Shown: positions 43,013 through 62,793 of the stretch, one piece after another
Layout: every line of letters begins with the position of its first letter
Position numbering within the stretch: position 1 is the first letter of the stretch
From: Lachnospiraceae bacterium
GTDB taxonomy: Bacteria > Bacillota > Clostridia > Lachnospirales > Lachnospiraceae
Assembly: GCA_016288495.1 (NCBI GenBank)
Contig: JAEEZH010000155.1
Coordinates: 4,804-68,803, forward strand
Direction: 5' to 3'
DNA: 64,000 nt
Made by a program: the position numbers and the translations under genes
The notes under the pieces: generated by a model
Told to the model about the DNA's origin: nothing
The model's database searches: none
The model's input: the letters and a program-made list of their open reading frames with translations, nothing else

Positions 43013-45589
43013 CTACTCTATCCCCAGTACCTTGTAGTCCTGATCTTCCACGGCTTTTTTGAGCACATCGTCCGCCACATCCGCACTCAGCGTCACTACC
43101 GCTGTATTGGCATTATGGTCCGCCACAGCGCTTTCAACGCCTGCAACAGCTTCAAGAGCCTTTTTTACACGAGCCTCACAGTGTTCACACATCATTCCTT
43201 CTACCTTAAGTGTCTTTGTCATTGTACTTTCCTCCGTTTCAGTATTGTTGATATTATTTATTTCGTCCCATGCTAAAGCAGGGCGTCTTACCTTATGGTC
43301 ATGGGTTGCATCATGCACCTTGAACAGATTAAGCCTCAAAGCATTCATGCATACAGTAAAGCTTGAAAGGGACATGGCTGCGGCTCCCCACATGGGATTC
43401 ATGCGGATGCCATGGTACAGTCCTGCAGCCATGGGAATGAGAATGATGTTGTAGGCAAATGCCCAGAAAAGATTCTCATATATGTTTTTAAGGGTTTTGC
43501 GGCTGAGTCTTACAGCTGCCGATACATCCGTAAGCTTTGAATTTATCAGTACAACGTCAGCGGCATCTACAGCAATATCGGTACCGGCTCCGATTGCGAT
43601 CCCTATGTCTGCACGGGTGAGAGCGGGGGAATCATTGATGCCGTCGCCAACCATTGCCACCTTTCCGTATTTCTGAAGGTCTCTGATCACAGATTCCTTA
43701 CCCTCCGGAAGTATTCCTGCAATGACATTGTCTACTCCTGCCTGCTTTCCGATCGCCTGAGCTGTCCCGGCGTTGTCACCGGTAAGCATGACGACTTCAA
43801 TGCCCATATTTTTAAGTTCTTTAACGGCCCGGGCGGAATCTTCCTTAATGACATCAGCAACCGCGATGATCCCGAGAAGTTTTCCTTCTCTTGCAAAAAA
43901 CAGCGGGGTCTTGCCCTCCTTTGAAAGGCTCTTTTCCCTCTGCTTTGTAACAGGATCCATACTGCAGACAGTGCGGATAAATTTCCCGGAGCCCGCATAC
44001 AAAACCTGACTGTTTTGCTCTGCGGATATGCCGTTTCCGGGAAGTGCCTTCCAGTTCGTGACCGGGTGCAGGGGACAGGGCGGATCATCCACTGAATTGA
44101 CAACTGCTTTGGCAAGGGGATGTTCACTTCTTACTTCCATAAGATAAGCTGTTGATACAAGCTCTTCCTGTGTTACACCGTCTGCAGGGATGATATCCGT
44201 AACCTCCGGCTTTCCTTCGGTAATAGTGCCGGTCTTATCAAGTGCCACGATCTGAACTTTACCTGTTGATTCCAGGGCCTCGCCTGTTTTAAACAGGATC
44301 CCGTTCTTTGCTCCCATGCCGTTACCGACTATGATCGCAACCGGTGTGGCAAGCCCCAGTGCACAGGGACAGCTTATCACAAGCACGCTTATGGCACGCT
44401 CAAGGGCATAAACTATCCCCGCATCCTTAATCATCCATATGACAAATACTGCAGCTGCAACAGCTATGACTGCCGGTACAAACACTCCGGAAACCTTATC
44501 CGCTATCCTGGCGATCGGTGCTTTGGTTGCAGCTGCGTCACTTACCATCTGTATGATCCGGGAAAAAGCAGTATCCTCGCCTACACGGGTGGCTTTTGCC
44601 TTAAAAAAACCGGAATGATTGATAGTTGCGGCACTTACGCTGTCTCCCACAGATTTATCCACAGGAATGGATTCTCCGGTAAGAGCTGATTCATCAACAG
44701 CCGTATCTCCCTCAACAATGGTTCCGTCTACGGGTATGGATTCTCCGGGTTTTACGACGAACACATCCCCTGCCCGGACCTCCTTGATATCCACTAAAAA
44801 TTCTTTTCCGTCTCGCTCTATCGTGGCGGTCTTGGGAGCCATCTTCATCAGGTTTTTCAGGGCATCCGTTGTTTTTCCCTTGGACACTGATTCCAGTGTC
44901 TTGCCCACTGTGATCAGTGCCGGGATCATAGCTGCCGATTCAAAATATAGCTGGCTGTGATATATCTCCATGAGATCCGTGTTAGGTGTTCCCCCGGTGA
45001 TCATAACCGTCATCTTGTAAAAGACATACAGAGACCACCCAAAGGATACCGATGAGCCAAGGGCCACCAGTGTATCCATGTTGGGACTTCCATGGAAAAG
45101 AGTCCTGAAGCCCGAGATAAAAAAAGCCCTGTTGATATACATCACTATGATCGCAAGAAGCATCTGTGAAAGGGTAAGTCCCAGGTGATTATGTACCAGG
45201 AAAGCCGGGACATAAAGACCAAGCATGTTGTGTCCCATAGTCAGATACATGAGGATCAGAAGAAAACCTACAGACCATATAAGTCTTTTTATAAGCTTTG
45301 GAGTCTCATAGTCCTTCAGGGCTTCTTCTTCAGCCGCAAGATTTGCAAAAGCATCCGGCCGGTCGTTCTCTCTTATATCCGCCGTGATCTTTGGCCTTGC
45401 GCCGTAGCCTGCATCCTCCACCGCTTTTATGACATCAGCTTCGCTGACGTCGCCCTCCACACCCATGGTATTTGTAAGAAGAGAAACGCTGACATCTTTT
45501 ATTCCCGGCAGCCTTCCGACTGCCTTTTCCACTCTGGCCTGGCATGCAGCACAGGTCATTCCCGTAACGATATAATGCCTCATTATCAC
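43013..45589 (-). CDS. copA: Copper-translocating P1B-type ATPase CopA with an N-terminal HMA domain and an in-frame C-terminal CopZ-like HMA module
   Basis: It has GMTCAAC (N-terminal HMA), the CPC transmembrane motif [24 protein letters not shown], and a C-terminal [15 protein letters not shown] module. The start is either GTG 45589 or ATG 45583. Confidence 0.95.
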
Positions 45590-45611
45590 TCACTTGAAAA
45601 TAAATATGCTG

Positions 45612-45657
45612 AATAGTCCCCCCTACTATCCGGGATTATATACTAGGGGGGACTATT
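45612..45657. promoter_or_regulatory. Inverted repeat upstream of copA: putative CsoR operator overlapping a TATAAT -10 box
   Basis: AATAGTCCCCCCTAC...N...TAGGGGGGACTATT has C6/G6 tracts in 14-nt inverted arms. On the minus strand the spacer contains TATAAT. CsoR operators are typically GC-tract pseudo-palindromes. Confidence 0.5.
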
Positions 45658-45704
45658 TGTCAACAGTACATAGTGCTTTAATTTCGGATATCTGCAGAAT
45701 TATA

Positions 45705-45740
45705 CTTGAACGACCCGTCGGGATTGGTGTATCATTTATC
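45705..45740 (+). repeat. 36-nt array repeat, copy Z (most degenerate, 26/36 match)
   Basis: CTTGAACGACCCGTCGGGATTGGTGTATCATTTATC was compared with the consensus CTTGAACGACCCGCTAAAAATGGTGTATTGTTCAAC. The first 13 nt are identical, and it shares the ATCATT variant with copy A. Confidence 0.5.
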
Positions 45741-45809
45741 GGGATAGTCTTGCTTATGTCCATGGAAAAGGAAGGCAGCATGTAATTTAGCAATATAAGG
45801 AGGACATGT

Positions 45810-46133
45810 ATGGATAATATTCTTTTAGCCGCCACCGGGACGGTATCGGGAGGTCACCTTTGGTCTATAAGGATAATCGGTATCGCGGTGGTAGCGGCAT
45901 TCTATTATTTCGTTACTGTCAGACCCCGGGTCAGGGAGAAAGAAAAGAAAAAGGAAATGCTTACTAAAATGGAGGTCGGTGATGTGGTGGAGACCACAGG
46001 TGGTTTTTATGGGGTACTCATCGATGTTACGGATGAGGATGTCATAGTCGAGTTTGGTTCCAACAAGAACTGCCGTATCCCCATGAGAAAGACCGCTATT
46101 GCCGATGTATATAAGGCAGAAAATGATGTCTGA
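45810..46133 (+). CDS. yajC: Preprotein translocase subunit YajC
   Basis: It has a single TM followed by VGDVVETTGGFYGVLIDV...VEFG, the typical YajC core. Confidence 0.85.
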   Translation: MDNILLAATGTVSGGHLWSIRIIGIAVVAAFYYFVTVRPRVREKEKKKEMLTKMEVGDVVETTGGFYGVLIDVTDEDVIVEFGSNKNCRIPMRKTAIADVYKAENDV

Positions 46134-47261
46134 TCATAATTTTTTGTCGAAATACAATTGTTCATCAGCGCGTTTCAGACAGGTTTTGATCGTTTCATCA
46201 CTGTTGAGGAAATCATAGCCGACACTTGCTTCCAGCTTATATTTTAGATCAGCTGACTTCTCCTTTAGTATTGTTCTGAAACTTGAGATCAGTCCTGTCA
46301 CTGCCTCATTATCCACGGACCTTATGATCATAATGAACTCATCCCCGCCATAACGTCCCAGAAATATCGGAAATGTTGCCGCATCGGCAGTCTTTCTCAG
46401 AGAATCCGCTATCAGCGTAAGCGCACGATCCCCCTCGGCATGTCCGTAGTTGTCGTTGATCATTTTAAAGCTGTCTATGTCGATCATACATACACAGCAC
46501 GACTCGTCTTCGCTGTAACTGATGTTATCCATGTACCGGTCAATCTGCCTCCGATTGTTCAGTTTTGTCAGGGAGTCAACCGATATAAGCATCTGTAGGG
46601 ATTTGATGTAGAAATACAGCATCATCAACGTAACTCCGAAACAGAAAAGCGGTGCATTGAGCAAAAAGGTCTGCAGCAGGCCAAAAGATACTATGGCAAG
46701 CGGATAGAGAGCGATAAGCCGGTACAGTCTTTTTTCTTCTATCACAGTGGTTTTTTTTGCGTTTTTCAGGGAAATAACGGAGGAAGATAACACATATAAC
46801 GACGGAACAGTCACCATAAACGGATAGTAGAGATCACCGAGATTGCCATCTTTGTCTATCCAGAGTAAAGGGTTGATGACATAAGCTGCTATTATCACAA
46901 GGACAGATACCATGGTGGGTATCAGGACTGTTTTGGCAAATTTCCGTTTCTTATTAAGGAGCATCCCTTCCGAGGCAGCCATGTACATGAACCAGCTATA
47001 CCCTATAAGATGCAGGAATACATAGTTTGTAAAGTTAAAAAAGACAACAAAAAAACGAATATGGGGAAGTACATCGCTTAACACCGCAGCCCAGCCTATA
47101 TCCGAAAGAAAGTAAATGATATGTACGATGCCTGTCCTGATAAACCAGTTTTCCTGCTCGGTTTTGGTCCGGTAGCCTGTATTCTGAAAGATCAGCATGA
47201 TGAAAATGGCTATGCATACCAGGTTGGCTTCTGTATAGAATCCAAAGTATTCCGGTTTCAT
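46134..47261 (-). CDS. Membrane-anchored diguanylate cyclase (multi-TM plus GGDEF)
   Basis: It has hydrophobic N-terminal helices, then SLTKLNNRRQI...RYGGDEFIMI. Confidence 0.9.
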   Translation of the reverse strand: MKPEYFGFYTEANLVCIAIFIMLIFQNTGYRTKTEQENWFIRTGIVHIIYFLSDIGWAAVLSDVLPHIRFFVVFFNFTNYVFLHLIGYSWFMYMAASEGMLLNKKRKFAKTVLIPTMVSVLVIIAAYVINPLLWIDKDGNLGDLYYPFMVTVPSLYVLSSSVISLKNAKKTTVIEEKRLYRLIALYPLAIVSFGLLQTFLLNAPLFCFGVTLMMLYFYIKSLQMLISVDSLTKLNNRRQIDRYMDNISYSEDESCCVCMIDIDSFKMINDNYGHAEGDRALTLIADSLRKTADAATFPIFLGRYGGDEFIMIIRSVDNEAVTGLISSFRTILKEKSADLKYKLEASVGYDFLNSDETIKTCLKRADEQLYFDKKL

Positions 47262-47405
47262 TTATATTTTTTCCTACCTGACAACTTTTATTTATAATAT
47301 ACGGTTGAATTTTATAGTTTTATCGAATGTCCGTCCATTCTATTATAACACGTGAATTACGTATGGTTAAGGGTCTGGGTGATTTTTTCTTGGGAAATCA
47401 GCAAT

Positions 47406-47690
47406 CTAAACACTACGCTGTCTGGCCACTTCCACAGTACTCATCACACTTTCTTCTTTTTTAACGTAATCCGCAAGGTAAGGAATACAAAACATCACCT
47501 TGCCTCGTTCCGGGCTCGCAATGATCCCCTGGTCTATGAGATATGCCCTGGGTCTGCTCAGTTTATTCTGAGTCATACCCATACTGCGTGCAATATCAGC
47601 CGTTGAGGCAAGACGTTCTGAGTCCAGGCATTCGGACATCTTCGTTAAATATGTCCGCTCACTATTCGGAAGAGATAAAATGGAGAACTG
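47406..47690 (-). pseudogene. 5'-truncated remnant of an AAA-ATPase-type gene (C-terminal winged-helix portion only)
   Basis: The open frame has no plausible N-terminus. It reads ...STADIARSMGMTQNKLSRPRAYLIDQGIIASPERGKV..., an HTH-like tail. The frame stays open to within about 10 nt of repeat copy A. The family call is from memory. Confidence 0.5.
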
Positions 47691-47700
47691 TTAAGATTCT

Positions 47701-47736
47701 CTTGAATGATCCTCTAAAAATGGTGTATCATTCAAC
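47701..47736 (+). repeat. 36-nt array repeat, copy A (5 substitutions, 4 of them stem-preserving), followed by a 10-nt partial re-duplication
   Basis: The copy is CTTGAATGATCCTCTAAAAATGGTGTATCATTCAAC, then TTGAATGATC at 47737-47746. Confidence 0.85.
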
Positions 47737-47809
47737 TTGAATGATCTTATAATGGTAAACCGAAGATCTTATATAGGTAATGAAGACTGATATGGCTAAG
47801 GAGAATAAC

Positions 47810-50437
47810 ATGAAGGTAAGACATTCGTTCAAGAAACTTGTTTCTGTTTTTATATCTTTGACGTTTATGGCGGCTTTGATCCCGCAATCTACCCTGGCAG
47901 ACGGCCCGGATCCGCAGCAAAGCCTTACCGGAATATCTGTCTCTGATACGAAGGATAGCGTAAACAGCGTATATGAACTGGCGGATTCACTTTATCAACG
48001 AAATTCGAACTTTGGCAGAAGAGCCGGCGGATTCATCTGGGATACCGAGGGAAAAAAGAGGAGCTGGACCTATTATAACGGTATCATGATGGATGCTTTT
48101 CTTACGATCGACAAGGAGGCCTATCTTCCCTGTGTAAACGATTATTATAATGAAAATATAACCAGCTCGGGGAAAGTTGACAGCACCGATGCAAGCGAAA
48201 ACTATTACAGGGAGAAGGAACTGGACTCTATCCCGCCTGCACGTGCTCTTTTTGATCTGATCCGGGAGAAGGATTATAATAAGTGTGCCGATAAATATAA
48301 AAAGACAATTAATTATATTTACAGTATTATGCAGTCATATGAGGTTGCAGAGGGGACCAACGGTAATTTTAAACACAAGATAGACAACAAAAACTGGGAG
48401 ACCTATCTGATCGCCCTTGATGGTCTCTATATGGCCCAGCCCTTTTTTATGGAAGTTGCAAATGCTCTTGATGATGGCATATTAATTGTCCAGGATTTTC
48501 AGACTTACACATGTGAAGTACCGGAATCCGATGACATCTACAGTGCTGTGACGGAACGTATGTTATGGATTGGCGAGAATCTTTATATACCCCAAAAGCA
48601 TCTGTATTGTCATGGCTGGGGGCCTGATGGCCTGAACGGACAATACTGGTTAAGGGCTGTCGGCTGGTACGCGGCTGCTCTTGCCGATGTTATCAGTATG
48701 CTTCCTAAAGATGGGTATGAGGAAGAAAAGGATGCCCTTATATTAACAGAAAAAAAGCTTTTTGATGGTATGCTGGAATACCGTGACGAGGCGACGGGCA
48801 TGTGGTATAACGTGATCGACCACGGGCCGGAGCTCGCAGGAAGCGGTTGCAACAATGAGCTTGAAACCTCCGGCACTGCTCTCATGGCTTATGCTATGAT
48901 GAAAACCTATGCGGAAGGATATCTGGACGATACTTACGGGGAAGCCGGCCTCATGGCGTTTAATGGTATAGTTAAGAATTATCTGGATTCCGAAGGACTT
49001 CACAATGTCTATATTTCTTCGGGAGTTGAGACTACTCCGGAAGGGTACCTTGGCAAAAGTTATAAGGTGAACGAGGCAAAGGGCGTAGGGCCGCTGATGA
49101 TGGCCGCGTCCTATGCAAATGCCGCTGCAGAGATTCACGCCGCACCGTCAGCTATCCTGACCGGTGGGGAGGATATGACCTTTGAAATCAACAAAACTCC
49201 GGATTTTTCCGGGGTTTCAGCCAATATCATTTATAATAACGGCACGTCCGTTACGGTGACGAGTGAAAAGCTGACATTCGGAGAATGTGACCCGACAGTG
49301 ACAGGACTTCAGGAAGTGGAGGTATATTACAAGGATATTAATTGTGGAAAGATAAGAGTAACATTTAAAGAACCGGATTCGGAAGATAAGCCGGGCAGTT
49401 CATCCTCGTCGTCAAGGACCAGCAGTTCGTCCTCGTCGTCAAGGACCAGCAGTTCGTCCTCATCGACAAGGACCAGCAGTTCGTCCTCGTCGACAAGAGA
49501 CAGCAGTTCGTCCTCGTCGACAAGAGACAGCAGTTCGTCTTCGTCGTCAAGGACCAGCAGTTCGTCCTCGTCGACAAGAGACAGCAGTTCGTCCTCATCG
49601 ACAAGGACCAGCAGTTCGTCCTCGTCGACAAGAGACAGCAGTTCGTCCTCGTCGGCAAAGGATGGCAGCTCGTCATCTACAGAAAAGGATAAGGACAGCA
49701 GCTCATCAATTGTTGCAGATAGGAAGGACAGCAGCAGCTCAAGTGTGGTTCCTTCCGGCACGTCGGGAGACGGTGACGAGAAAGACAGTACATCGGGCAG
49801 TGTGAAGGTGGTAAGCGAACCCACGCAGCCTGTGAGCGTTTCCATCGGCGGAACGCCTGTGCAGGTCAGAGTGGAACAGGAATATACCGCTGATACCGTA
49901 TATTCGGGCGAGGCCCTGACTCCCGAGTCTGCGGGGCTCAAGACTGATGTTTCCGGCCTTGAAGGCCTCGCAAAGACCGCTATTGAGAATTCGGCAGGAA
50001 ACGTGGCTTCAGCCGGGGATCTAAGCGGACTATTCACTGTGTCCTACAAGGCAAAGGGTAAGGGCGGAGCAGGCGAGACAGCCTTTACATCAAAGATCAA
50101 ATTCGATAAAAAACAGGCAAAGCAGCTGGGAATGAGCAAGGATGACATTAAGGCCCTGGCAAACGCAGTGAAGGCTCTGAATAAATTTCTGAAGCAGAAT
50201 CCCGCGAAGATACAGGTGGCGAAGGCTGACCTTGCCAAATGTTTTGAATCCATAGATGCGTCCTTCGACGCGAAGGGGAAGCTGAAGATAAACTCTGTTA
50301 CAGTGAAGCTTAATGAAAAAACAGTAACTCTTAAGAAGAAGGACTACAAGGTGACGGTATCAGACTCTGAAAAACGCACTGTGACCTTGGAGGGACGGAA
50401 AAACTATGAGGGTACCATCACTGTCACGTTGAAGTGA
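47810..50437 (+). CDS. Secreted GH105/GH88-like unsaturated glycuronyl/rhamnogalacturonyl hydrolase, fused to an Ig-like domain, a Ser-rich linker and a Lys-rich C-terminal module
   Basis: It has a signal peptide (FMAALIPQSTLA) and GH105/GH88-type motifs (WTYYNGIMMDAF, LDGLYMAQPFF, HGWGPD..YWLRAVGWY, ETSGTA). A (SSSSSS[RT][RT][DT]S)n linker follows. The C-terminal region resembles that of ORF 32-5521. The start was set at ATG 47810 after an AAGGAG RBS. Confidence 0.7.
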   Translation: MKVRHSFKKLVSVFISLTFMAALIPQSTLADGPDPQQSLTGISVSDTKDSVNSVYELADSLYQRNSNFGRRAGGFIWDTEGKKRSWTYYNGIMMDAFLTIDKEAYLPCVNDYYNENITSSGKVDSTDASENYYREKELDSIPPARALFDLIREKDYNKCADKYKKTINYIYSIMQSYEVAEGTNGNFKHKIDNKNWETYLIALDGLYMAQPFFMEVANALDDGILIVQDFQTYTCEVPESDDIYSAVTERMLWIGENLYIPQKHLYCHGWGPDGLNGQYWLRAVGWYAAALADVISMLPKDGYEEEKDALILTEKKLFDGMLEYRDEATGMWYNVIDHGPELAGSGCNNELETSGTALMAYAMMKTYAEGYLDDTYGEAGLMAFNGIVKNYLDSEGLHNVYISSGVETTPEGYLGKSYKVNEAKGVGPLMMAASYANAAAEIHAAPSAILTGGEDMTFEINKTPDFSGVSANIIYNNGTSVTVTSEKLTFGECDPTVTGLQEVEVYYKDINCGKIRVTFKEPDSEDKPGSSSSSSRTSSSSSSSRTSSSSSSTRTSSSSSSTRDSSSSSSTRDSSSSSSSRTSSSSSSTRDSSSSSSTRTSSSSSSTRDSSSSSSAKDGSSSSTEKDKDSSSSIVADRKDSSSSSVVPSGTSGDGDEKDSTSGSVKVVSEPTQPVSVSIGGTPVQVRVEQEYTADTVYSGEALTPESAGLKTDVSGLEGLAKTAIENSAGNVASAGDLSGLFTVSYKAKGKGGAGETAFTSKIKFDKKQAKQLGMSKDDIKALANAVKALNKFLKQNPAKIQVAKADLAKCFESIDASFDAKGKLKINSVTVKLNEKTVTLKKKDYKVTVSDSEKRTVTLEGRKNYEGTITVTLK
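49396..49660 (+). repeat. About ten tandem 27-bp coding repeats (SSSSSS-T/R-R/T-D/T-S)
   Basis: Reiteration of AGTTCGTCCTCGTCGACAAG(G/A)(A/G)ACAGC was read directly from the DNA. Confidence 0.9.
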
Positions 50438-50498
50438 AAAAGATCATTATTTATAAGCTGCTCAACTCAGAGTTGAGATATTTGAGGAGTAGATAACA

Positions 50499-51044
50499 AT
50501 GGAGCTGTTAGATGGAAGACCGGAGAATGTGGAGGGGCGCCTGCCTCGTGAGACGCGTACCTACGACCTTCTGGATTCTCTCGGTATTGATTATAAAAGA
50601 ACAGATCACGAACGGACAGATACCATGGAGGCCTGTAATGCTGTAGATGAGATCCTGGGTGTTGTGATATGCAAGAATCTTTTTCTTTGCAATCGTCAGA
50701 AAACGGCATTTTATCTTTTGATGATGCCGGGAGATAAGAAGTTTAAAACAAAGGAACTGTCTGCGCAGATAAATTCTGCAAGGCTTTCTTTTGCCCAGCC
50801 TGAGGATATGCTGAAGTATCTGGATATCGAGCCGGGAGCCGTGAGCATCATGGGGCTGATGAATGATGAGGATCGTGCAGTTCAGCTGCTGATCGATGAG
50901 GATGTATTGAAGGATGAGTATCTCGGATGTCATCCCTGTGTGAATACATCCAGTCTTAAGATACGCGTGGATGATGTGATAAAGAAGTTTCTGCCGGCCG
51001 TGGGACATGATTATAGGACTGTGCATTTGGTCGGAGATGATTAG
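50499..51044 (+). CDS. Prolyl-tRNA synthetase-associated (YbaK/ProX-type) aminoacyl-tRNA editing domain protein
   Basis: The pattern KNLFLCNRQKTAFYLLMMPGDKKFKTKELSAQINSARLSFA...PGAVSIMGL...HPCVNTSS is typical of this family. Confidence 0.85.
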   Translation: MELLDGRPENVEGRLPRETRTYDLLDSLGIDYKRTDHERTDTMEACNAVDEILGVVICKNLFLCNRQKTAFYLLMMPGDKKFKTKELSAQINSARLSFAQPEDMLKYLDIEPGAVSIMGLMNDEDRAVQLLIDEDVLKDEYLGCHPCVNTSSLKIRVDDVIKKFLPAVGHDYRTVHLVGDD

Positions 51045-51061
51045 GTGTGAAAAATTTCCGA

Positions 51062-51481
51062 TCAATGTTCGTGTACGCTCCGCCTCCTGATACTAAAAAA
51101 TCCGATGAGGTCAAAGACACCGGCCAGAGAATTTAGTATGTGGGCGAGCGGGAAGATCCCTCTTTTGATCATGGGGGTATTGTCCAGGCTGGCGGCAAAG
51201 CCGAGAAAGACCAGACCGTCAAGGCAGATCAGGGTCATGGAAATGGTTATGACCGTCAGAGCCAGAATTAAGGTGAGCTGACTTCTGGTAAATGAAGTCA
51301 GGACAGTGGCGATGTTGGTCAGGTACATGGCAAAAAACAATATGATCAGCCCGCCCCACCAGTCGCTTATTGAATTGAAATACACAATGGTATAATAGAT
51401 TTTGTATCCGAATGCCCCTATCGCGATAAAAAGTCCGATCAGCTTCCATATGCTGAATATTCCGTGTCCGGCGTTGTCCAT
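51062..51481 (-). CDS. Small four-helix membrane protein
   Basis: This 139-aa protein has four hydrophobic segments. I recognise no family. Confidence 0.45.
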   Translation of the reverse strand: MDNAGHGIFSIWKLIGLFIAIGAFGYKIYYTIVYFNSISDWWGGLIILFFAMYLTNIATVLTSFTRSQLTLILALTVITISMTLICLDGLVFLGFAASLDNTPMIKRGIFPLAHILNSLAGVFDLIGFFSIRRRSVHEH

Positions 51482-51731
51482 GTCTTTGTTCTCCTTTGCC
51501 GGTTATATGGTAACACAGCAGGCCGGATTTGTTAATATACCGGTAATGAAATAACCCTTTTTGTTTTCTCCGGCGATCAGCATTTGATTTGTTCATATCC
51601 TTCCGAAAGGTCGCTCTTTCATTGCATTTTTCCATAAAAAAACATATAATTTACATTGATTTTGCACGAGCAATTTGAAATAAGTAATGAGTTTCATGGT
51701 GCTGCTGATGACGGGGTTAAGGAGGTTAGGA

Positions 51732-52052
51732 ATGGCATCGAGTAAAGAATATCTGGATTATGTATTGGATCAGTTATCCGGGGCGGATGAGATAACTTAC
51801 AGGGCGATGATGGGAGAGTATATTATCTATTATCGCCGGAAAGTGATCGGCGGGATCTATGATGACCGGTTTCTTGTGAAGAATGTAAAATCAGCCAGAG
51901 ATATGATGCCGGATGCGGACCTGGAATTACCCTATGAAGGCGCCAAGGAGATGCTTTTGGTAGACGATGTCGAGAATAAGGAGTTCCTTAAAGAATTGAT
52001 GGAAGCGATGTTCGAAGAACTGCCGGCTCCGAAGAAAAAGAAAGAGAAGTAG
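51732..52052 (+). CDS. TfoX N-terminal domain family protein
   Basis: It reads EYLDYVLDQL...YRAMMGEYIIYYRRKVIGGIYDDRFLVK. An AAGGAGG RBS precedes ATG 51732. Confidence 0.7.
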   Translation: MASSKEYLDYVLDQLSGADEITYRAMMGEYIIYYRRKVIGGIYDDRFLVKNVKSARDMMPDADLELPYEGAKEMLLVDDVENKEFLKELMEAMFEELPAPKKKKEK

Positions 52053-52081
52053 GAGAGGAGTTTTGATGGAGCCCGGCGTTT

Positions 52082-52143
52082 TCTTTGGACGTGAAAAAAA
52101 AAAGTGTGATGAGTACTGCGGAAGTGGCCAGACAGCGTAAAGT
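52082..52143 (+). pseudogene. Second remnant (last ~12 codons, MSTAEVARQRKV*) of the same ATPase-type gene as 47406-47690, in the opposite orientation, ending 13 nt before repeat copy B
   Basis: About 60 nt align with the reverse complement of 47403-47465 (GTGTGATGAGTACTG(C/T)GGAAGTGGCCAGACAGCGTA...). Confidence 0.6.
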
Positions 52144-52156
52144 ATAGATCACTGCG

Positions 52157-52192
52157 CTTGAACGACCCGCTAAAAATGGTGTGTTGTTCAAC
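52157..52192 (+). repeat. 36-nt array repeat, copy B (1 substitution, A27>G)
   Basis: CTTGAACGACCCGCTAAAAATGGTGTGTTGTTCAAC. Confidence 0.95.
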
Positions 52193-52293
52193 AAAATGGA
52201 GCGTAAGGGATTAACTCGTGAAGAGGCGTATGAGGATATAATAAAAACCGCATCAAAGACAAATGAAGAATACGATAAAAGGTATGGCGTGAA

Positions 52294-52557
52294 ATGAAAT
52301 ACAAGTATAACATAAAAACCTATAATTCTCCGGATGCCTTTAGGATGGCTTGTATGGAATTTGAGAAGGAGTATCCAACTGCCAAAAAGAATGAAATGCT
52401 CGTTGATGTAGATGGATCAACTATCCAAGTTTACGCAACCGATGAAGGCGAAATGGTGATTTTTGATGATTATGATGTAGGGGCTGTTTTTGCAAATGCT
52501 GACTTTTTGATTCCTGAAACCTCTAAGCTTAATGATTTATTTGTGTTGATAAACTAA
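52294..52557 (+). CDS. Hypothetical small acidic protein (87 aa), immunity-protein-like in size and context
   Basis: This is a complete ORF. Its ATG overlaps the stop of an upstream gene fragment (ATGA), and its stop overlaps the next start (TAATG). Confidence 0.5.
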   Translation: MKYKYNIKTYNSPDAFRMACMEFEKEYPTAKKNEMLVDVDGSTIQVYATDEGEMVIFDDYDVGAVFANADFLIPETSKLNDLFVLIN

Positions 52558-52685
52558 TGGCTGTTGTATCCGTTCGTATAACCGATAACTCCGACGCTGT
52601 CCTGGCCGAGCTTGAGAAGCGTGCGAAGGTGGCGCTTGAAGCCGTGGGGATCCAGGCAGAGGGGCATTGCAAGCAGGAACTTGAA
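52557..52685 (+). pseudogene. First 43 codons of a gene (possibly a phage HK97-gp10-like tail-completion protein), cut by repeat copy C
   Basis: MAVVSVRITDNSDAVLAELEKRAKVALEAVGIQAEGHCKQELE runs straight into the repeat. The family guess is from memory and is weak. Confidence 0.4.
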
Positions 52686-52721
52686 CTTGAACGACCTGCT
52701 AAAAATGGTGTATTGTTCAAC
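52686..52721 (+). repeat. 36-nt array repeat, copy C (C12>T), preceded by a partial CTTGAA re-duplication
   Basis: CTTGAACGACCTGCTAAAAATGGTGTATTGTTCAAC. Confidence 0.95.
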
Positions 52722-52885
52722 AATACCGCCACCAATAGCAAGTTCAGCAAGTAAACCAATTCCCTCTAAAATCCCTATTTCTGCCGCAAATGTTGTACTT
52801 GTAAAATATTGACCAAATACAGATGAAACAAGTATAATTAAGGCCAAGAAAACAGCAGAAAGGGATTTTATCATGGAATTTATCA
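52722..52885 (-). pseudogene. 3'-truncated gene encoding a signal-peptide/TM N-terminus, cut by repeat copy C
   Basis: The minus-strand ORF M(INSM)IKSLSAVFLALIILVSSVFGQYFTSTTFAAEIGILEG... runs into the repeat without a stop of its own. Confidence 0.35.
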
Positions 52886-53133
52886 TGCCTTTTTTACAAA
52901 ACAAAAGACTTTTAATTTCACTTATTATAATCTTTTTATATACCATCATATCTATTACCCGAAGCAAAATGAAATCAAATTATTTTTCACTTCACAAGAA
53001 ACCCGTTCGTGAAAAATTAAAATGGACTCATCATTTCAATTTATTCAAACGAAAACAAAAGGATCAATATATCAAATGGTTAACCGAACACAAACGTAAA
53101 TGGTCTGAAGAACGGTGGAAACGCTTTAAATAA
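52873..53133 (+). CDS. Hypothetical small protein (TM segment plus a highly basic tail); the start is uncertain (alternative ATG 52966)
   Basis: The ORF lies in an AT-rich segment and its stop is 5 nt before copy D. I have no family and little support beyond the ORF itself. Confidence 0.3.
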   Translation: MEFIMPFLQNKRLLISLIIIFLYTIISITRSKMKSNYFSLHKKPVREKLKWTHHFNLFKRKQKDQYIKWLTEHKRKWSEERWKRFK

Positions 53134-53138
53134 TTCTT

Positions 53139-53174
53139 CTTGAACGACCTGCTAAAAATGGTGTATTGTTCAAC
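53139..53174 (+). repeat. 36-nt array repeat, copy D (C12>T)
   Basis: CTTGAACGACCTGCTAAAAATGGTGTATTGTTCAAC. Confidence 0.95.
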
Positions 53175-53278
53175 TAAAATGGGTATAGTTACGAAGGAAG
53201 TAAGAAACCATAAATACACTGTTGTAAATTATGGATTTGATAATTATAGGGTTATCAAAAGGAAGCGATTGAAATAGT

Positions 53279-53509
53279 ATGCCGAGTGAAAGAATACTGA
53301 AGGAACTTAATAAAAGAATTATACCGATCTGCAGAACTGATGAAGAACTAAGCGCGATTCCTTTATATGTCGAAACTGATAAATATCGCCAAAAACTGAT
53401 TGATTATATCGATATTGCGAAAAAACGTGGCGATGAAGTGACAGGCGATCAACTGATGATTCTTTTAATTACATTGTCTAACGAAGAGGAAAAAGATACT
53501 GAATTATAA
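53279..53509 (+). CDS. Hypothetical small acidic protein (76 aa)
   Basis: This is a complete ORF starting 1 nt after the stop of a 32-codon ORF/fragment (53178-53276). It is followed by a hairpin terminator. Confidence 0.5.
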   Translation: MPSERILKELNKRIIPICRTDEELSAIPLYVETDKYRQKLIDYIDIAKKRGDEVTGDQLMILLITLSNEEEKDTEL

Positions 53510-53513
53510 AAAG

Positions 53514-53540
53514 AAGGCACTTACAAACGTAGGTGCTTTT
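53514..53540 (+). terminator. Hairpin terminator abutting repeat copy E
   Basis: A GGCACTTAC-AAAC-GTAGGTGC stem is followed by TTTT. A near-identical hairpin occurs inverted at 61257-61287. Confidence 0.6.
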
Positions 53541-53576
53541 CTTGAACGACCTGCTAAAAATGGTGTATTGTTCAAC
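53541..53576 (+). repeat. 36-nt array repeat, copy E (C12>T)
   Basis: CTTGAACGACCTGCTAAAAATGGTGTATTGTTCAAC. Confidence 0.95.
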
Positions 53577-53660
53577 TGAAAAACTGGCGGGACTTTTGGA
53601 ACAGAATCTCAAAGATCCCTGGCCGGATGAGCTCAGGTCGAGGCTGAATGCGGCATATAC

Positions 53661-53696
53661 CTTGAACGACCCGCTAAAAATGGTGTATTGTTCAAC
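53661..53696 (+). repeat. 36-nt array repeat, copy F (consensus)
   Basis: CTTGAACGACCCGCTAAAAATGGTGTATTGTTCAAC. Confidence 0.95.
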
Positions 53697-53723
53697 ATGA
53701 TTTATTTAAGGAGCGAATTTATA

Positions 53724-55787
53724 ATGAAAAAGAGAGTTTTATCAATATTGTTGACCACTGTTTTTATGTTTTCGGCAGTTGCCTGTGCACAGCAGAATAC
53801 GGCCGGAATACCGACGGATAAAGTGCTAGACACTGAAGAGATAACTCAAAAAAATGACGACGACAAAGACACAAAAGAGGCTGCGAAGGGTTCTGAACAG
53901 ACAGGGGATTCAACATCTGAAACGGATATCGACAAAATTATTGATGATATGACTCTTCGTGATAAGGTGGAACAGATGATGGTTGTATCCTATCGAGTTT
54001 GGAAAGAGGTTCCTGAAAAGGATGAAGAATCAGATGCGGTGTCAGATAATGATTTGGCTGAGGATATTCCGGGTATCAATGTAACTGAATTAAATGATGA
54101 GATCCGTGATGACCTCAAAGGACATAAATACGGCGGTGTTCTTCTTTTTGGTGAAAACTTTAAGGATGCCGCCCAGACTGCAGGCCTTGTCTCAGACATA
54201 CAGGCCACCAATCAGGACGGGGGAGGCCTTTCCTTATTCATCTGCGTGGATCAGGAGGGCGGTAAAGTGGCCCGTGTCAGCTTTGGCACGACAGGCCCCG
54301 GCAATATGGCCCTGGGGGCAACCGGCGATGCAGGCAACGCCAAAGCAATGGCGGAAATATACGGAAAAGAGTTACAGCTTCTGGGAATCAATACGGACTT
54401 TGCTCCCGTGGTTGACGTTAATAATAATCCCAGTAACCCTGTCATAGGTATCCGTTCTTTCTCCGATTCACCTGAAACGGTTTCGGATTATGCCATTTCA
54501 TACATTGAAGGACTGCATGATGCAGGAACTATCGCCACCTTAAAGCATTTTCCGGGACATGGAAACACGGATACCGATTCCCATACCGGATTTCCCCGCA
54601 TTGACTCAAGTTATGATGAATTAAAGGAATTTGAGCTGATCCCCTTTAAGAAGGCCATCGATGCCGGCGCAGACATGGTCATGACTGCGCATATCCAGTA
54701 TCCTCAGATAGAGACTGAGAAATATATTTCTACCTCATCAGGTGAGGAGGTATATATACCCGCAACCATGAGCCATAAGATCCTTACGGACATACTCAAA
54801 GATGATATGGGATTTGAAGGTGTGGTGGTTTCGGATGCCTTGGATATGAAAGCCATCACGGAGAATTTTGCGGATGAGGATGTCCTCAGGATGACCATGA
54901 ACGCAGGCGTGGATTTCATCATACTTCCCGCCATATTTGATACAGCAGGTTTCAGACATGTTAATGAAATGGTGGAAACAGCCGTGAAACTCGCCGAGGA
55001 CGGAGATGTGGATGAAGAAACTATAGATGATTCCGTAAGACGTATCCTTAGATTAAAGGAAAAATACGGCATTCTTGAGCAGTCGGATTTCGCTCTGACG
55101 GACGAACAGATAAATGAGGCTGTATCCGGCGTGGGAAGCAGCGAAAACCGTGAGGTGGCATGGGAGATTACAAAGAAGGCACTTAGTCTTGTCAAAAATG
55201 ATAATGAGGCATTTCCCATAAATTTGGCTGATGACGAAACCACACTGATGCTTTTTGCTGCAAACTGCGAAGCCCAGGTCGGAACGGGAGAGTATGTCAG
55301 ACAAGAACTCATGGAACAGGGAATCATTTCTAATGAATCACATATAGCGATAATGAAAAATGATAAAGAAAATGAAACTGAATGTATGAATGCGGCTCTT
55401 GAGGCTGATCACTGCATACTGGTATATAAGACCTATAATGCAGCCTGCCTTGATCCTGCTACAGACGACGGTTATTCATCAGGCGTATTTGATAAGATCA
55501 TAGCCTCTCTGCATGAGAAAGAAAAGCAGGCAATTGTTGTAACCTGTCAGCTTCCTTATGATGCGGCAAGGTTTGGCGATGCTGATGCGATTCTTCTTTC
55601 CTATAATTTTTCAACGATAGATAAGGCAGTTCCCGAGTCGGGAGCCGGCAGCGCCTTTGCCCCCAATCTGGCCGCAGCCCTTATGGCCTGCTTCGGAGAC
55701 GGTGATGTGAGCGGCAAAGCGCCTGTTAAGATTCCGAAACTGGATGAAAAATATAAGTTTACGGAAGAGGTATTTGAAACCAGATGA
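53724..55787 (+). CDS. Secreted lipoprotein, glycoside hydrolase family 3 (beta-N-acetylhexosaminidase/beta-glucosidase-like)
   Basis: It has the lipobox FSAVAC, the GH3 N-domain motifs VDQEGGKVARV and LKHFPGHGNTDTDSHTG, and a C-terminal alpha/beta domain. An AAGGAG RBS precedes ATG 53724, which lies 28 nt after copy F. Confidence 0.9.
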   Translation: MKKRVLSILLTTVFMFSAVACAQQNTAGIPTDKVLDTEEITQKNDDDKDTKEAAKGSEQTGDSTSETDIDKIIDDMTLRDKVEQMMVVSYRVWKEVPEKDEESDAVSDNDLAEDIPGINVTELNDEIRDDLKGHKYGGVLLFGENFKDAAQTAGLVSDIQATNQDGGGLSLFICVDQEGGKVARVSFGTTGPGNMALGATGDAGNAKAMAEIYGKELQLLGINTDFAPVVDVNNNPSNPVIGIRSFSDSPETVSDYAISYIEGLHDAGTIATLKHFPGHGNTDTDSHTGFPRIDSSYDELKEFELIPFKKAIDAGADMVMTAHIQYPQIETEKYISTSSGEEVYIPATMSHKILTDILKDDMGFEGVVVSDALDMKAITENFADEDVLRMTMNAGVDFIILPAIFDTAGFRHVNEMVETAVKLAEDGDVDEETIDDSVRRILRLKEKYGILEQSDFALTDEQINEAVSGVGSSENREVAWEITKKALSLVKNDNEAFPINLADDETTLMLFAANCEAQVGTGEYVRQELMEQGIISNESHIAIMKNDKENETECMNAALEADHCILVYKTYNAACLDPATDDGYSSGVFDKIIASLHEKEKQAIVVTCQLPYDAARFGDADAILLSYNFSTIDKAVPESGAGSAFAPNLAAALMACFGDGDVSGKAPVKIPKLDEKYKFTEEVFETR

Positions 55788-55842
55788 GTTTTTCATTGTT
55801 TAAAAATTTAAAAATAGATTTCATGTATCCGGAAATAAAGCG

Positions 55843-56812
55843 ATGAAAAAAACTGATTTGTCCGTCATATTGATCTGTATATTATGTGGTTTTATATTCA
55901 CGGGCTGCGGAAAGCTTAAAGCCATCATGGATCCTAAATCCCAAAATGCAGGGGATTCACACAATAATGCAGTGTATGATGTATCATTACAGCATAAAGA
56001 TGAAATCGATAAAACTGAAGATATTCCTTTGACGGATTCTGAAAAAGATGATGATTTAAATAACAATAAAGATGCTGATCCTGATATGTCGGTGGCCGAT
56101 AAGGATGATACCATCTATGGTAACGGCGGACATTTCGTCAAGTATGGCGGAAAAATCTATTTCAGGGCGCCAGGAAAAGATGCCATGAATAAGGCCGCGC
56201 TTTGGGGCGAATATGATCATATAGGTGAGGCTGTAAGCAGCACCGTAACTTCATATGATCTCGAAACACATGAAACACAGGCTCTTTTTGAGGACACATC
56301 TATAGGGCCCATAGTCATATCAGGAGGGCGTTTTATCCTGGCCGGAATGGAGGCAGACGGAGACGGTCATGTGTATTCATTATCTTTAGACGGATCAGAT
56401 AAAAAAGAACTCCCGGGCAGTCGGATATATGCCACACAGCCTTCAGGAAAATATTTTGTCACAGGTGGCTATGAAGATGATAATAATCTTCACTTTTTCA
56501 TCTGTGATGATGAAGGCAGCTCTCATGAAGTAGATAATACATTGACACTTCATGATTTTGCCGGTATTTCGGATGATCACTTTTTTGTATAACCTGTGAA
56601 GGTGATGAAACCTATGGGAGTTTCGCAGGATATGAGCTTGAAACCGGTAATGAGATCCCTTACGGTCATTTCGGGGAAATATCCGAATATTATAATTATC
56701 CCGGCTTACCTGAATGTCTGGATACCGATGAAAACTCAGTATATCTGCAGATGTCCGCATATGAAGGCACCGGTAATTTTTATTCCTCCAGCAAGTGGAA
56801 TAAGGCAGATTT
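55843..56812 (+). pseudogene. Lipoprotein gene, frameshifted in a T6 run (56581-56586) and 3'-truncated by repeat copy G
   Basis: It has the lipobox FTGC. The ORF stops at 56592, but the adjacent frame continues without stops (CITCEGDETYGSFAGYELETG...SSSKWNKADF) right into the repeat. Confidence 0.6.
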
Positions 56813-56848
56813 CTTGAACGACCCGCTAAAAATGGTGTATTGTTCAAC
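56813..56848 (+). repeat. 36-nt array repeat, copy G (consensus)
   Basis: CTTGAACGACCCGCTAAAAATGGTGTATTGTTCAAC. Confidence 0.95.
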
Positions 56849-57326
56849 CAGGCGACTATATATATATATGACCGGCACAATGTACACAGCCAGAGACGCC
56901 GCCCACAAAAGGATGATGGAAACTCTGGATAAGGAAGAAGCGCTTCCTCTCGATATTGACGGAGCCACCATATATTATATGGGCCCTTCCCCTGCAAGAG
57001 AGGGCAGGCCTATAGGTTCTGCGGGACCGACTACAGCCGGACGAATGGATAAATACGCTCCCAGGCTTCTCGATCTGGGTCTTAACGCCATGATCGGAAA
57101 GGGGAGACGTACAAAGCAGGTCAAAGATGCCATCATCAGGAATGGCGCAGTATATATCGCCGCAGTCGGCGGAGCCGGCGCTCTTTTATCAAAATGCATT
57201 AAGAGCTCTAAAGTGATCGCCTATGATGATCTCGGAACCGAAGCCATAAGAAGGCTTGAGGTTGAAGATTTTCCCGTGATAGTTGTATTTGACAGCAAAG
57301 GAAACGATCTGTACGACCCGGATTAA
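56849..57326 (+). pseudogene. Class I (Fe-S) fumarate hydratase/tartrate dehydratase beta subunit, missing roughly its first 15-25 codons (an internal ATG at 56868 could still be called as a start)
   Basis: The sequence ...TGTMYTARDAAHKRM...GPSPAREGRPIGSAGPTTAGRMD...IGKG...AAVGGAGAL is the conserved beta-subunit core. Homology begins immediately at the 3' edge of copy G. Confidence 0.7.
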
Positions 57327-57369
57327 CGATAATTACATATATCTTTGTTCAGTCTTCTTCATTTCATTA

Positions 57370-58047
57370 TTAACACTTCATTTTCTTCAGCGTGCCTTTA
57401 ACAAGCGCAGCTGAAAAAGGCATGCAAAACTGCGCTACCGGTCCGACCAGGAATGCGCAGATTATGGTTCCGACTCCAAATCTGCCTCCGGGAAAAAAAC
57501 CGATGAGTACAAATAACACATCAGTGATGATCCTCACGATGCCAAATGGTTTGCCGCTTTTTTCGCTTATGACAACAGCGACAAGGTCATTGGGTCCCGT
57601 ACCGGCTTCCGAGCGTATGACGATGGACATCCCGAAAGCAAGGATCACACATCCCAGGATAAGAACTGGGATCTTGACTGCAAGATCCGACTCACTGATA
57701 CTGAGAGGCTCCAGCAACAAGGTGAACAGATCGATAATCGGTCCCCCGCAGAACATACAGACTACAGTCCCCGCCTTTACATAGCTTCTGCCTGAAACAA
57801 GAAGTATCAGTATTATCAAAAAACACACGCACATATGCACCGTCCCGTGTGTCGGTGTGATCAGACCTGTTTTAATTATGAGCAGGCGAAGACCCTGTAT
57901 AAGTACGTTAAAGGGATCTGCTCCCAGATCCGCAAGTATGAATAAGGTGACGCCAAGATGTGCGACCACAAGTCCCAGAAATAGCAGACAAAGCCGGACT
58001 GTCTTTTCACGCAGCTTTTCGCTCATTTTATATCTTGTCTCCTCCAT
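57370..58047 (-). CDS. Polytopic membrane protein (YczE/DUF6198-like)
   Basis: This 225-aa protein has six hydrophobic segments and the motif LADLGADPFNVLIQGL. The family assignment is from memory. Confidence 0.5.
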   Translation of the reverse strand: MEETRYKMSEKLREKTVRLCLLFLGLVVAHLGVTLFILADLGADPFNVLIQGLRLLIIKTGLITPTHGTVHMCVCFLIILILLVSGRSYVKAGTVVCMFCGGPIIDLFTLLLEPLSISESDLAVKIPVLILGCVILAFGMSIVIRSEAGTGPNDLVAVVISEKSGKPFGIVRIITDVLFVLIGFFPGGRFGVGTIICAFLVGPVAQFCMPFSAALVKGTLKKMKC

Positions 58048-58152
58048 AGGTTTATATCTAACTTATTCCATCCTGAAGTCATCAGGATTCCGTCATGCAC
58101 GTCGTGCCTGCCACCTCATGACGAATGTTACCGATCCCGCAACTTGCCTGTC

Positions 58153-59700: not shown

Positions 59701-59846
59701 AAAATAATGTTTATCTTTTGTATTGATTGCCGTATTTGGTAAAAAATTATTATTTCATGCTGTTATTACTTGAAATATGACAGAATTACGGCTTGTTATG
59801 ATCATATCTGCCCTGTATAATAATTACATGAGGATCGGAGGATAAT

Positions 59847-60698
59847 ATGGCGCTTCCCTTACCTGAAGGAAAAAAAATACATATAAACTACAGACTTCTG
59901 GAGCCTGAATTTGAAATGCCTTCACTTGAAGCGGCGCCGGATCATTATACGCTGTGCCTTATTATCAGAGGTGACAGAAGAGTGATCACTCCGACTATGA
60001 CCTATGAACTCCATTCAGGAGACGTAAACGCCATGCCTCCGTTTTTGTATCACAAAACCATGCCGGCATCCGATGAGTATTATGAAAACATCCTGATAAA
60101 ATTCTCTCCGGATATCCTGGACGAATTTAACCGTAGACTCGGAAACAATATTATCGACCGCTTTTTTGAAAGTCCACCGAAATCCTTTGAAGATGAAAAG
60201 GCCAGGGAAAGAGTATTTTCAACTGCATGGAATATGTGGCGGATATATGACGCGGGAGATACAAACGAAACATATCTGAATTTCAGACTTCAAAGCCTTC
60301 TGTACGGACTGATCCTCGAGATCAATTCAGAGAGCTCTCACGTAAAGGGAGTTAACAACCACCAGACCGTCCTTAGCCAGCCCATAATGGATGCCATTTA
60401 TTATATAGAAAAAAACTACATGAAGCAGATCCATATTGAAGACGCCGCTTTTGCCGGAGGATATTCGGTCTCTTATTTTTCAAGACTGTTCCAGTCACAG
60501 CTCGGTCTGTCATTTACAGATTATCTTCAGAGCATCCGGCTCAAGCACGTAAAGTCAGATCTTATCAGCACGGACAGATCCATAATGGATATAGCCATTG
60601 ACAACGGCTTTATATACGCAGGCAACATGAGCAGCTGCTTTCGAAAAAAGACCGGAATGACTCCAACACAGTTCCGCCGCAAGATCAAGGAGAAATAA
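59847..60698 (+). CDS. AraC-family transcriptional regulator
   Basis: It has an N-terminal cupin-like region and a C-terminal double HTH (YSVSYFSRLFQSQLGLSFTDYL...IAIDNGFIYAGNMSSCFRKKTGMTPTQFRR). Confidence 0.85.
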   Translation: MALPLPEGKKIHINYRLLEPEFEMPSLEAAPDHYTLCLIIRGDRRVITPTMTYELHSGDVNAMPPFLYHKTMPASDEYYENILIKFSPDILDEFNRRLGNNIIDRFFESPPKSFEDEKARERVFSTAWNMWRIYDAGDTNETYLNFRLQSLLYGLILEINSESSHVKGVNNHQTVLSQPIMDAIYYIEKNYMKQIHIEDAAFAGGYSVSYFSRLFQSQLGLSFTDYLQSIRLKHVKSDLISTDRSIMDIAIDNGFIYAGNMSSCFRKKTGMTPTQFRRKIKEK

Positions 60699-61815: not shown

Positions 61816-61832
61816 TGAGGGGGAATTTATTT

Positions 61833-62772: not shown

Positions 62773-62793
62773 ATTGAGACTAAGGTTCATATC

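Follow-up and report, generated by a model that had tools for sequence, protein, structure and literature searches.

What kind of element lays down eleven copies of a 36-nucleotide (nt), hairpin-forming repeat on one strand of a bacterial contig and fills the gaps between them with pieces of DNA as short as 84 bp and as long as 4420 bp? The question is raised by a 64,000-nt stretch from a Lachnospiraceae bacterium (GenBank assembly GCA_016288495.1, contig JAEEZH010000155.1, positions 4,804 to 68,803; hereafter the window), in which an initial annotation had noticed decaying repeats that resembled CRISPR (short palindromic repeats, clustered and regularly interspaced). That resemblance reflects true homology, the repeat family forming the array that belongs to a type II-derived module of the CRISPR-associated (cas) genes cas1 and cas2. 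We conclude that the window repeats are probably an orphan array of a Cas9-less, CRISPR-like system derived from type II-C, which when complete combines cas1 and cas2 with a conserved leader (~75 nt) and an array of 36-nt repeats that form hairpins.

The window array spans 45705-62440, with all eleven copies on the + strand (Table 1). Counted again against CTTGAACGACCCGCTAAAAATGGTGTATTGTTCAAC, they carry, from left to right, the same 10, 5, 1, 1, 1, 1, 0, 0, 0, 0 and 0 mismatches that had been reported at the outset. The region originally delimited, 45705-52721, contains the variant copies only; the array extends to 62440, beyond which no copy, even a decayed one, was found up to 64000. Shuffled controls gave no match to the 36-mer at 3 or fewer mismatches, and the next-best match in the 64 kb, beyond the eleven copies, has 15 mismatches, so the 10-mismatch copy is real. 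All copies are clustered in 17 kb, and there are none in the remaining ~45-47 kb. As repeats, they look like those of a canonical CRISPR array (~23-55 nt, near-identical, on one strand), nine of the eleven lying within one mismatch. Their spacing does not look canonical: instead of regular short spacers (~21-72 bp), we found segments of 84-4420 bp in the window and 84-8167 bp in the family as a whole. Segment size is the most unusual, and the key, feature of the window array. As far as the window shows, the array is an orphan: tblastn detected neither cas1 nor cas2 there, and nhmmer with a profile of 24 leaders detected no leader. A candidate leader remnant at 45660-45704, faintly leader-like by eye, was rejected; it came ninth in the nhmmer search, with an E value of 50, and what lies there is the promoter of copA.

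The relatives of this array identify the system. A degenerate repeat pattern, run on a collection of species-representative genomes, matched 30 loci (numbered, like all related loci below, with the prefix L) in many Lachnospiraceae genera, including Wujia, Roseburia, Agathobacter, Faecalimonas, Butyrivibrio, Acetatifactor and 'Crickella', and in a few other Clostridia. In seven of these loci (L002, L003, L004, L007, L013, L017 and L027), 70-90 nt separate cas1-cas2 from the first repeat, which follows downstream in the same orientation, and some 30 related loci in all have cas1-cas2 and a leader beside the array. The relatives' Cas1 matches the type II Cas1 model TIGR03639 (234 bits, cutoff 120) and their Cas2 matches TIGR01573; PADLOC calls the two proteins Cas1_II (E 9e-83) and Cas2_II (E 3e-21). 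Aligned with E. faecalis Cas1 (PDB 5xvn), the Cas1 proteins have an intact catalytic Glu/His/Glu. No Rfam family, CRISPR-DR or other, matches the repeat. Between cas2 and the first repeat, the leader has three conserved features: the final cas2 codons and stop form a promoter-like TTGGnn-17/18-TATAAT site, this is followed by a CTATATATAGT box, and a ACAAGATGTAATA or CTAAATATAGTR element abuts the repeat. Type II-A systems have leader-anchoring sequences, which this last element resembles. Over 39-91% divergence, cas1-cas2 is conserved intact and in a fixed position relative to leader and array.

Departures from this layout were also seen. In L002, L003, L027, L053 and L056/L057, cas1/cas2 is internally deleted or cut short and the leader and perfect repeats are kept; examples include the N-terminus of Cas1 fused to the C-terminus of Cas2 and a deletion from mid-cas1 to the leader. 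Repeats occur upstream of cas1 in L040 (16-1079), L074 (2-37), L063 (7984-9935) and L070 (350-1109). L074 and L075 have a repeat followed by a cas1 that lacks its N-terminal half, and the GC-rich lineages L063, L064 and L070 have their entire array before cas1. A single repeat copy, TTTGAATGATCTTCCAGAAATGGTGTATCGTTCAAC, is present in two viral contigs of IMG/VR (157 kb, L111 4437-4472; 98 kb, L112 1054-1089), where it sits in an intergenic gap between tape-measure-like open reading frames (ORFs); the stretches fetched contained no cas genes.

Long spacing and the lack of cas9 go together in this family. A Cas1-seeded metagenome scan, in which the repeat was not used as a query, returned 559 relatives, and 80 were kept. 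In L031-L075 (Cas1 39-91% identity), 36-nt repeats downstream of cas2 are spaced by hundreds to thousands of bp, and no long-spacer locus has a cas9-sized ORF (600 aa or more, cas9-like) next to cas1. The more distant L076-L110 (34-38% identity) are canonical II-C loci: cas9 (1022-1315 aa) immediately precedes cas1, and the arrays have a period of 65-68 bp. Neighbour-joining places every long-spacer Cas1 in one clade, nested among cas9-linked II-C Cas1. The segment set, taken from 68 loci with 143 repeat copies, comprises 75 inter-repeat segments of 84-8167 bp (median 682, most 260-530 bp), none of which is near 30 bp. In an all-against-all ORF comparison, no gene family apart from cas1 and cas2 was common to the loci. 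A conserved neighbouring effector gene was sought and none was found; large serine recombinases are present near some loci, and they are heterogeneous and often lie inside other mobile elements.

The relatives also define the polarity of the arrays. In cas-linked arrays the first repeat is always modal, and variant or truncated repeats lie at the far, cas-distal (3') end, as seen in L036, L037, L042, L066 and in L004 plus L021; the cas9-linked II-C relatives likewise have decayed repeats at the cas-distal end. The window repeat is clearly in the cas-strand orientation, differing from the family consensus at 3 positions and from the consensus's reverse complement at more than 11, and its leader would therefore sit on the left. 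This does not support the initial annotation, which had placed growth at the right-hand end: every cas-linked relative has leader and cas2 5' of the repeat and decay 3', the opposite of the window. The orphan array L018 has a reversed gradient like the window's. The variant blocks of the window (G27, then T12 in three copies, then consensus in five) need one reversal whichever way the array grew.

Strains whose flanks are nearly identical hold wholly different inter-repeat DNA, with homology breaking off precisely at repeat edges. L031, L032, L033, L034 and L057 have flanks that are 94-99.9% identical and collinear through cas1-cas2, leader and first repeat; past the final base of that repeat they share no homology until the last repeat is reached. 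In L036, L037 and L045 the flanks are 99% identical over more than 5 kb downstream, and the arrays hold 1, 4 and 4 segments, none of them shared. L039, L040 and L041 show the same pattern of turnover. The segment ends have a mirrored motif. Of 70 segments, 42 have A at position +3 (background 0.32, p 1e-6) and 42 have T at position -3 (background 0.28, p 2e-8), so that both insert strands tend to read 5'-NNAA...TTNN-3'; the counts at positions +4 and -4 are 35 of 70 each, and about a third of segments have AA at +3+4 and TT at -4-3. This motif holds in the Cas1-seeded subset as well. As a sequence pattern, it would fit equivalent selection or processing of both ends by an integrase, and not homology-driven exchange. 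About 12 segments end in a T run, some of them just after a terminator-like hairpin.

The segments contain varied DNA. Open frames of at least 60 codons abut 24-39% of segment ends, compared with 51-56% in random fragments of the same loci, implying that the ends are neither random nor limited to intergenic DNA. Several segments consist of one uninterrupted frame (506 codons in L045; 106-134 codons each in L004, L042 and L049) and are therefore gene-internal pieces. One related segment carries a tape-measure-like fragment with 74-86% protein identity to 45 IMG/VR viral contigs; from other segments come a Hol44 holin paired with a CHAP endolysin, the C-terminus of a phage integrase, a transposase of the ISLre2 type, a Fic protein and a fragment of Ntox50. 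The 506-codon fragment of L045 has no relative in IMG/VR, and PHROGs gave weak matches only. Complete ORFs are oriented 73 to 36 relative to the repeat, a count in which the ORFs are not independent; counted per segment, gene orientation shows no significant bias (14 versus 8). A complete skipping-rope RNA (RF02924, 72 bits) lies inside the first segment of the cas-linked array of L004 (6747-6828).

From these data we infer insertion by Cas1-Cas2, its leader-proximal position and any benefit to the host. In the mechanism we propose, Cas1-Cas2 would insert DNA at the leader-proximal repeat and duplicate the 36-bp repeat, as in ordinary spacer acquisition. With no length ruler, inserts would be 0.08-8 kb pieces of whatever DNA is at hand, including whole accessory genes, gene-internal fragments and pieces of phages and transposons, and the 5'-NNAA...TTNN-3' motif suggests that their two ends may be selected or processed alike. 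The target would thus be that of canonical acquisition and the substrate that of a casposase. The lower limit of insert size (84-200 bp) and the mode at ~300-500 bp would fit the looping of one duplex so that both ends reach one complex. What survives in the window would be an island patched together from captured DNA, with copA on one side and an rnfB-like gene on the other. Evenly balanced, in our judgement, is the broader proposal that a II-C lineage of Cas1-Cas2 lost both Cas9 and the length ruler and became a general DNA-capture machine, writing kilobase fragments and whole genes into a leader-adjacent array. Such a lineage would be a CRISPR-derived functional analogue of the integron, or else a long-form record of invading DNA with readout by some mechanism; orphan arrays like the window's would be genomic islands left by the capture machine.

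A number of points weigh against insertion by Cas1-Cas2. No function is evident. Cas9 is required for type II-A adaptation in vivo (Wei et al. 2015, PMC4335292), which makes a Cas9-less type II module that still acquires DNA a departure. Close strains have no spacer in common, not even trailer-proximal ones, and the variability could come just as well from homologous recombination that swaps entire arrays by way of the conserved flanks as from serial acquisition. The window array decays at its 5' side, where the leader should lie. Many loci have a broken cas1 or cas2 (L002, L003, L027, L053, L056/57, L074/75), and breakage this frequent may mean that activity is rare. Finally, nearly all the loci come from metagenome assemblies.

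Several of these observations are shared by the main rival, according to which the repeats are portable homology or recombination sites. Turnover would then proceed mainly by homologous or site-specific recombination after DNA uptake, in the form of exchange, deletion or whole-array replacement, with Cas1-Cas2 a relic or rare contributor. The complete lack of shared spacers between same-species strains with 99% identical flanks speaks for this model; so do the many truncated cas1/cas2 genes, the perfect repeats of orphan arrays that have no cas genes nearby (the window and L018) and the large serine recombinases near some loci. We nevertheless consider it unlikely. An intact cas1-cas2 with its catalytic residues has been kept across 39-91% divergence at a constant position relative to leader and array, no recombinase family is common to the loci, and the mirrored end motif points to end-specific insertion.

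The fold described in the initial annotation was recovered as the minimum free energy (MFE) structure of the + strand RNA,.((((((((..(((((....)))))..)))))))., at -11.5 kcal/mol (z -3.7; 0 of 200 shuffles as good). Covariation indicates that this hairpin is under selection, substitutions in a larger collection of copies being non-random with respect to the predicted pairs. Among 74 distinct repeats, 76.8% of cells pair, versus 24-45% with slid partners; changes on both sides are seen in 11 of 16 pairs, and there are 47 double-change cells versus 21.3 +/- 3.5 after shuffling, a number that none of 500 shuffles reaches. The same holds for 21 lineage representatives found via Cas1 and hence free of the bias of a repeat-pattern search. 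In these, 78.6% of the cells of the inner helix (8-15 with 22-29) are paired and 6 of its 8 pairs show double changes, pair 12-25 is C-G in 9 and G-C in 8, and the covariation score is 0.307, compared with 0.158 +/- 0.020 in shuffles. The outer helix is GTTGAAC/GTTCAAC in one subfamily; another has CAAATAC on the 5' side with the 3' GTTCAAC fixed.

The fold had been taken to be strand-specific, and for the window variant it is: the - strand of the window repeat folds at only -5.9 kcal/mol (z -1.75). Family-wide, this difference largely vanishes. The family consensus folds at -17.9 (+) versus -17.1 (-) kcal/mol, mean MFEs are -12.8 (+) and -11.9 (-), G.U cells number 100 on the + and 81 on the - strand, and in some lineages the loop is T-rich, not A-rich, on the cas strand. 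Judged from these comparisons of sequence, the selected entity would be a hairpin or, equivalently, a DNA cruciform or a two-fold symmetric site.

The substitutions had been listed correctly (C7T, C10T, G13T, T29C and G30A in copy A; A27G in copy B; C12T in copies C-E), and four of the five in copy A do keep or improve pairs, the remaining one, G13T, breaking a pair. Across the repeat family, however, the majority state at position 29 is C, and the window differs in having T. C29 is probably ancestral and the window's T29 derived, and both copy A and the 10-mismatch copy carry the family-typical C29, ...GTATCATT... version. The two leftmost copies therefore look like an older version of the repeat, not like freshly compensated ones.

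A hairpin with an internal mismatch also invites comparison with integrons, in which case the 36-mer would act as a short site of the attC type, folded from a single strand, and circular cassettes would be inserted there by a tyrosine recombinase whose gene lies elsewhere. The attC R''/R' boxes are RYYYAAC / GTTRRRY, and the repeat, which starts ...TTGAAC and ends GTTCAAC, recalls them. The segments are gene-sized, and some small ones hold one sense ORF ending just before the repeat. Yet attC sites are 57 nt or more (57-141 nt) and have extrahelical bases besides R''-L''/L'-R' boxes, and here the repeat is 36 nt with a stem of 13-16 bp and only its AAC...GTT ends are attC-like. The window array contains no tyrosine recombinase and none is shared among the ~75 loci, whose conserved neighbour is instead cas1-cas2; genes are interrupted at many segment ends, some segments come entirely from inside a gene, and the per-segment orientation bias is not significant. 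We regard an integron-like origin as very unlikely.

We give still less credence to the idea that these are ordinary CRISPR arrays, or regulatory hairpins of the repetitive extragenic palindromic (REP) or miniature inverted-repeat transposable element (MITE) kind, whose long spacing arose from mobile-element insertions or from mis-assembly at a shared 36-mer. Some long segments do contain transposases, serine recombinases and even cas genes, and almost all loci come from metagenome-assembled genomes or metagenome contigs; against this, none of the 75 spacers is near 30 bp (minimum 84 bp), and in comparable data the cas9-linked relatives assembled into clean arrays with a 66-bp period. Identical junctions between repeat and segment were seen in independent samples or assemblies (L056/L057; the window versus L113/L116), and both the reads and the final assembly k-mers, 141 in many contig names, are longer than 36 nt. 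REPs, bacterial interspersed mosaic elements and MITEs are dispersed genome-wide between genes in both orientations, whereas these copies are confined to one strand and 17 kb, with boundaries often inside genes and no copy elsewhere in the window. Readings as integron, attC, IS200/IS605, REP or IS91 elements were set aside given cas1-cas2 beside the repeat and no shared recombinase or transposase, and a sequencing adapter or linker artefact was rejected because the repeat varies with Cas1 phylogeny and is present in many independent studies.

Table 1. Repeat copies, intervening segments and flanks of the window array (window coordinates; substitutions relative to the consensus repeat)
Feature	Coordinates	Strand	Length	Description
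Left flank	43013..45663	-		copA-type P-type ATPase gene; perfect sigma-70-type promoter 45663-45635
Repeat copy 1	45705..45740	+	36 nt	Decayed, 10 mismatches: CTTGAACGACCCGTCGGGATTGGTGTATCATTTATC; fold lost
Segment S1	45741..47700		1960 bp	Complete yajC (+, 45810-46133); GGDEF protein (-, 46134-47261)
Repeat copy A	47701..47736	+	36 nt	5 mismatches
Segment S2	47737..52156		4420 bp	885-aa GH88-domain protein, YbaK/tRNA_edit protein, TfoX_N protein, all +
Repeat copy B	52157..52192	+	36 nt	A27G
Segment S3	52193..52685		493 bp	87-aa ORF (+), no family match
Repeat copy C	52686..52721	+	36 nt	C12T
Segment S4	52722..53138		417 bp	86-aa ORF (+), no family match
Repeat copy D	53139..53174	+	36 nt	C12T
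Segment S5	53175..53540		366 bp	76-aa ORF (+), no family match
Repeat copy E	53541..53576	+	36 nt	C12T
Segment S6	53577..53660		84 bp	Shortest of data set; one frame open end to end
Repeat copy F	53661..53696	+	36 nt	Consensus
Segment S7	53697..56812		3116 bp	Complete GH3 glycosidase with own ribosome-binding site; 249-aa ORF; open frame into next repeat
Repeat copy G	56813..56848	+	36 nt	Consensus
Segment S8	56849..61150		4302 bp	Truncated fumB at left edge; YitT (-), MatE (-), AraC (+); inverted fumA fragment at right edge
Repeat copy H	61151..61186	+	36 nt	Consensus
Segment S9	61187..61779		593 bp	No convincing gene
Repeat copy I	61780..61815	+	36 nt	Consensus
Segment S10	61816..62404		589 bp	150-aa membrane-like ORF (+), own ribosome-binding site
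Repeat copy J	62405..62440	+	36 nt	Consensus; final copy
Right flank	62441..64000	+		87-aa ORF, 146-aa ORF, hairpin, Fe-S (RnfB-like) gene from 63520 off window end

The segments of the window array carry chromosomal-type genes, complete ones with their own ribosome-binding sites (GH3, the GH88-domain protein, MatE, AraC, YitT, GGDEF and YajC) as well as fragments, and megablast found no phage or plasmid matches to the array. S6 looks like a gene fragment, one frame being open throughout. S8 is a mosaic of such pieces: its fumB (Fumerase_C) lacks ~25 N-terminal codons (full-length relatives have 173-184 aa, the closest being 86% identical), and its right edge is an inverted internal piece of fumA, roughly aa 130-235. 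A strong, 13-bp terminator-like hairpin at 60818-60848 (-) coincides with the end of fumarase similarity in this fumA piece, at ~60820-60830, and marks an internal junction inside S8. The public gene call P0121 (191 aa, 'Fumerase_C'; 56751-57326) begins upstream of copy G and reads through the repeat; it is a chimera of S7, the repeat and the truncated fumB. Abutting copy A with no spacer, at 47737-47759, is a partial second repeat, TTGAATGATCTTATAATGGT, which corresponds to the 5' two-thirds of the repeat with a 3-nt gap and may be the scar of an aborted insertion or of a deletion. An inverted pair of 56 nt, 89% identical, lies at 47404-47459 and 52094-52149, the second member ending 8 nt before copy B. 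The 885-aa GH88-domain ORF contains a 27-nt tandem repeat at 49341-49718 (62-100% identity over 10 registers of a 135-nt unit), from which a peptide repeat of 9 residues would be translated.

The GC content of the array is 43.5%, compared with 47.9% upstream. The source organism resembles Butyrivibrio: the window CopA is 86% identical to that of Butyrivibrio sp. AE3004, which has no repeats at the copA position and does not share the right flank. In that flank, a terminator-like hairpin with a T run can be read from the sequence at roughly 63270-63295.

If Cas1-Cas2 does insert 0.1-8 kb of DNA, a CRISPR integrase can drop its molecular ruler in nature, and a living system would link spacer acquisition with transposition of the casposon type. 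Lachnospiraceae, which are abundant in gut and rumen, would have a way of gaining genes that also makes strains hypervariable. The enzyme would be a candidate tool for placing long DNA of any sequence at a specific 36-bp target, of clear interest for DNA recording and genome engineering. There is also a warning for annotation, in that CRISPR finders overlook such arrays and gene callers read through the repeats, as in the 191-aa chimera.

How does this system compare with those already known? With type II-C of the Neisseria/Campylobacter type it shares type II Cas1/Cas2 nested among cas9-linked II-C Cas1, a 36-nt repeat that starts GTTG... and ends ...CAAC, and an array downstream of cas2 behind a leader, with decayed repeats cas-distal. 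It differs in having neither cas9 nor another effector at the loci examined, in spacers of 84-8167 bp versus ~30 bp, and in spacers that include whole genes and chromosomal gene fragments. A self-complementary hairpin repeat is, moreover, unusual for type II, whose repeats pair with trans-activating CRISPR RNA (tracrRNA). Like integrons and clusters of attC sites lacking integron-integrases (CALINs), the family has gene-sized segments between one-strand hairpin repeats, enzyme-less orphan clusters and content that is hypervariable between strains; unlike them, its linked enzyme is Cas1-Cas2 and not IntI, its repeat is 36 nt, its segment ends cut genes, no per-segment orientation bias was detected and it has no Pc/attI-type layout.

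Stand-alone cas1-cas2 with an array and no effector genes is known in general (PMC6452270), and orphan arrays without cas genes, as in the window, are a further likeness, but the known examples have ordinary short spacers. The full-text literature that we searched, including by repeat sequence, held no description of cas1-cas2 arrays with spacers of hundreds to thousands of bp, and within those limits the system is apparently an undescribed variant of CRISPR adaptation. The system also resembles casposons, which are Cas1-solo self-synthesising transposons (Koonin and Makarova 2019, PMC6452270), in that a Cas1-family integrase would insert kilobase-scale DNA and duplicate the target site. Casposons, however, are mobile in their own right, with a PolB of their own and terminal inverted repeats. 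Near the cas1 described here there is no conserved polymerase, the neighbours being cas2 and unrelated host genes; Cas1 stays put together with Cas2, and heterogeneous inserts without terminal inverted repeats pile up at a fixed leader.

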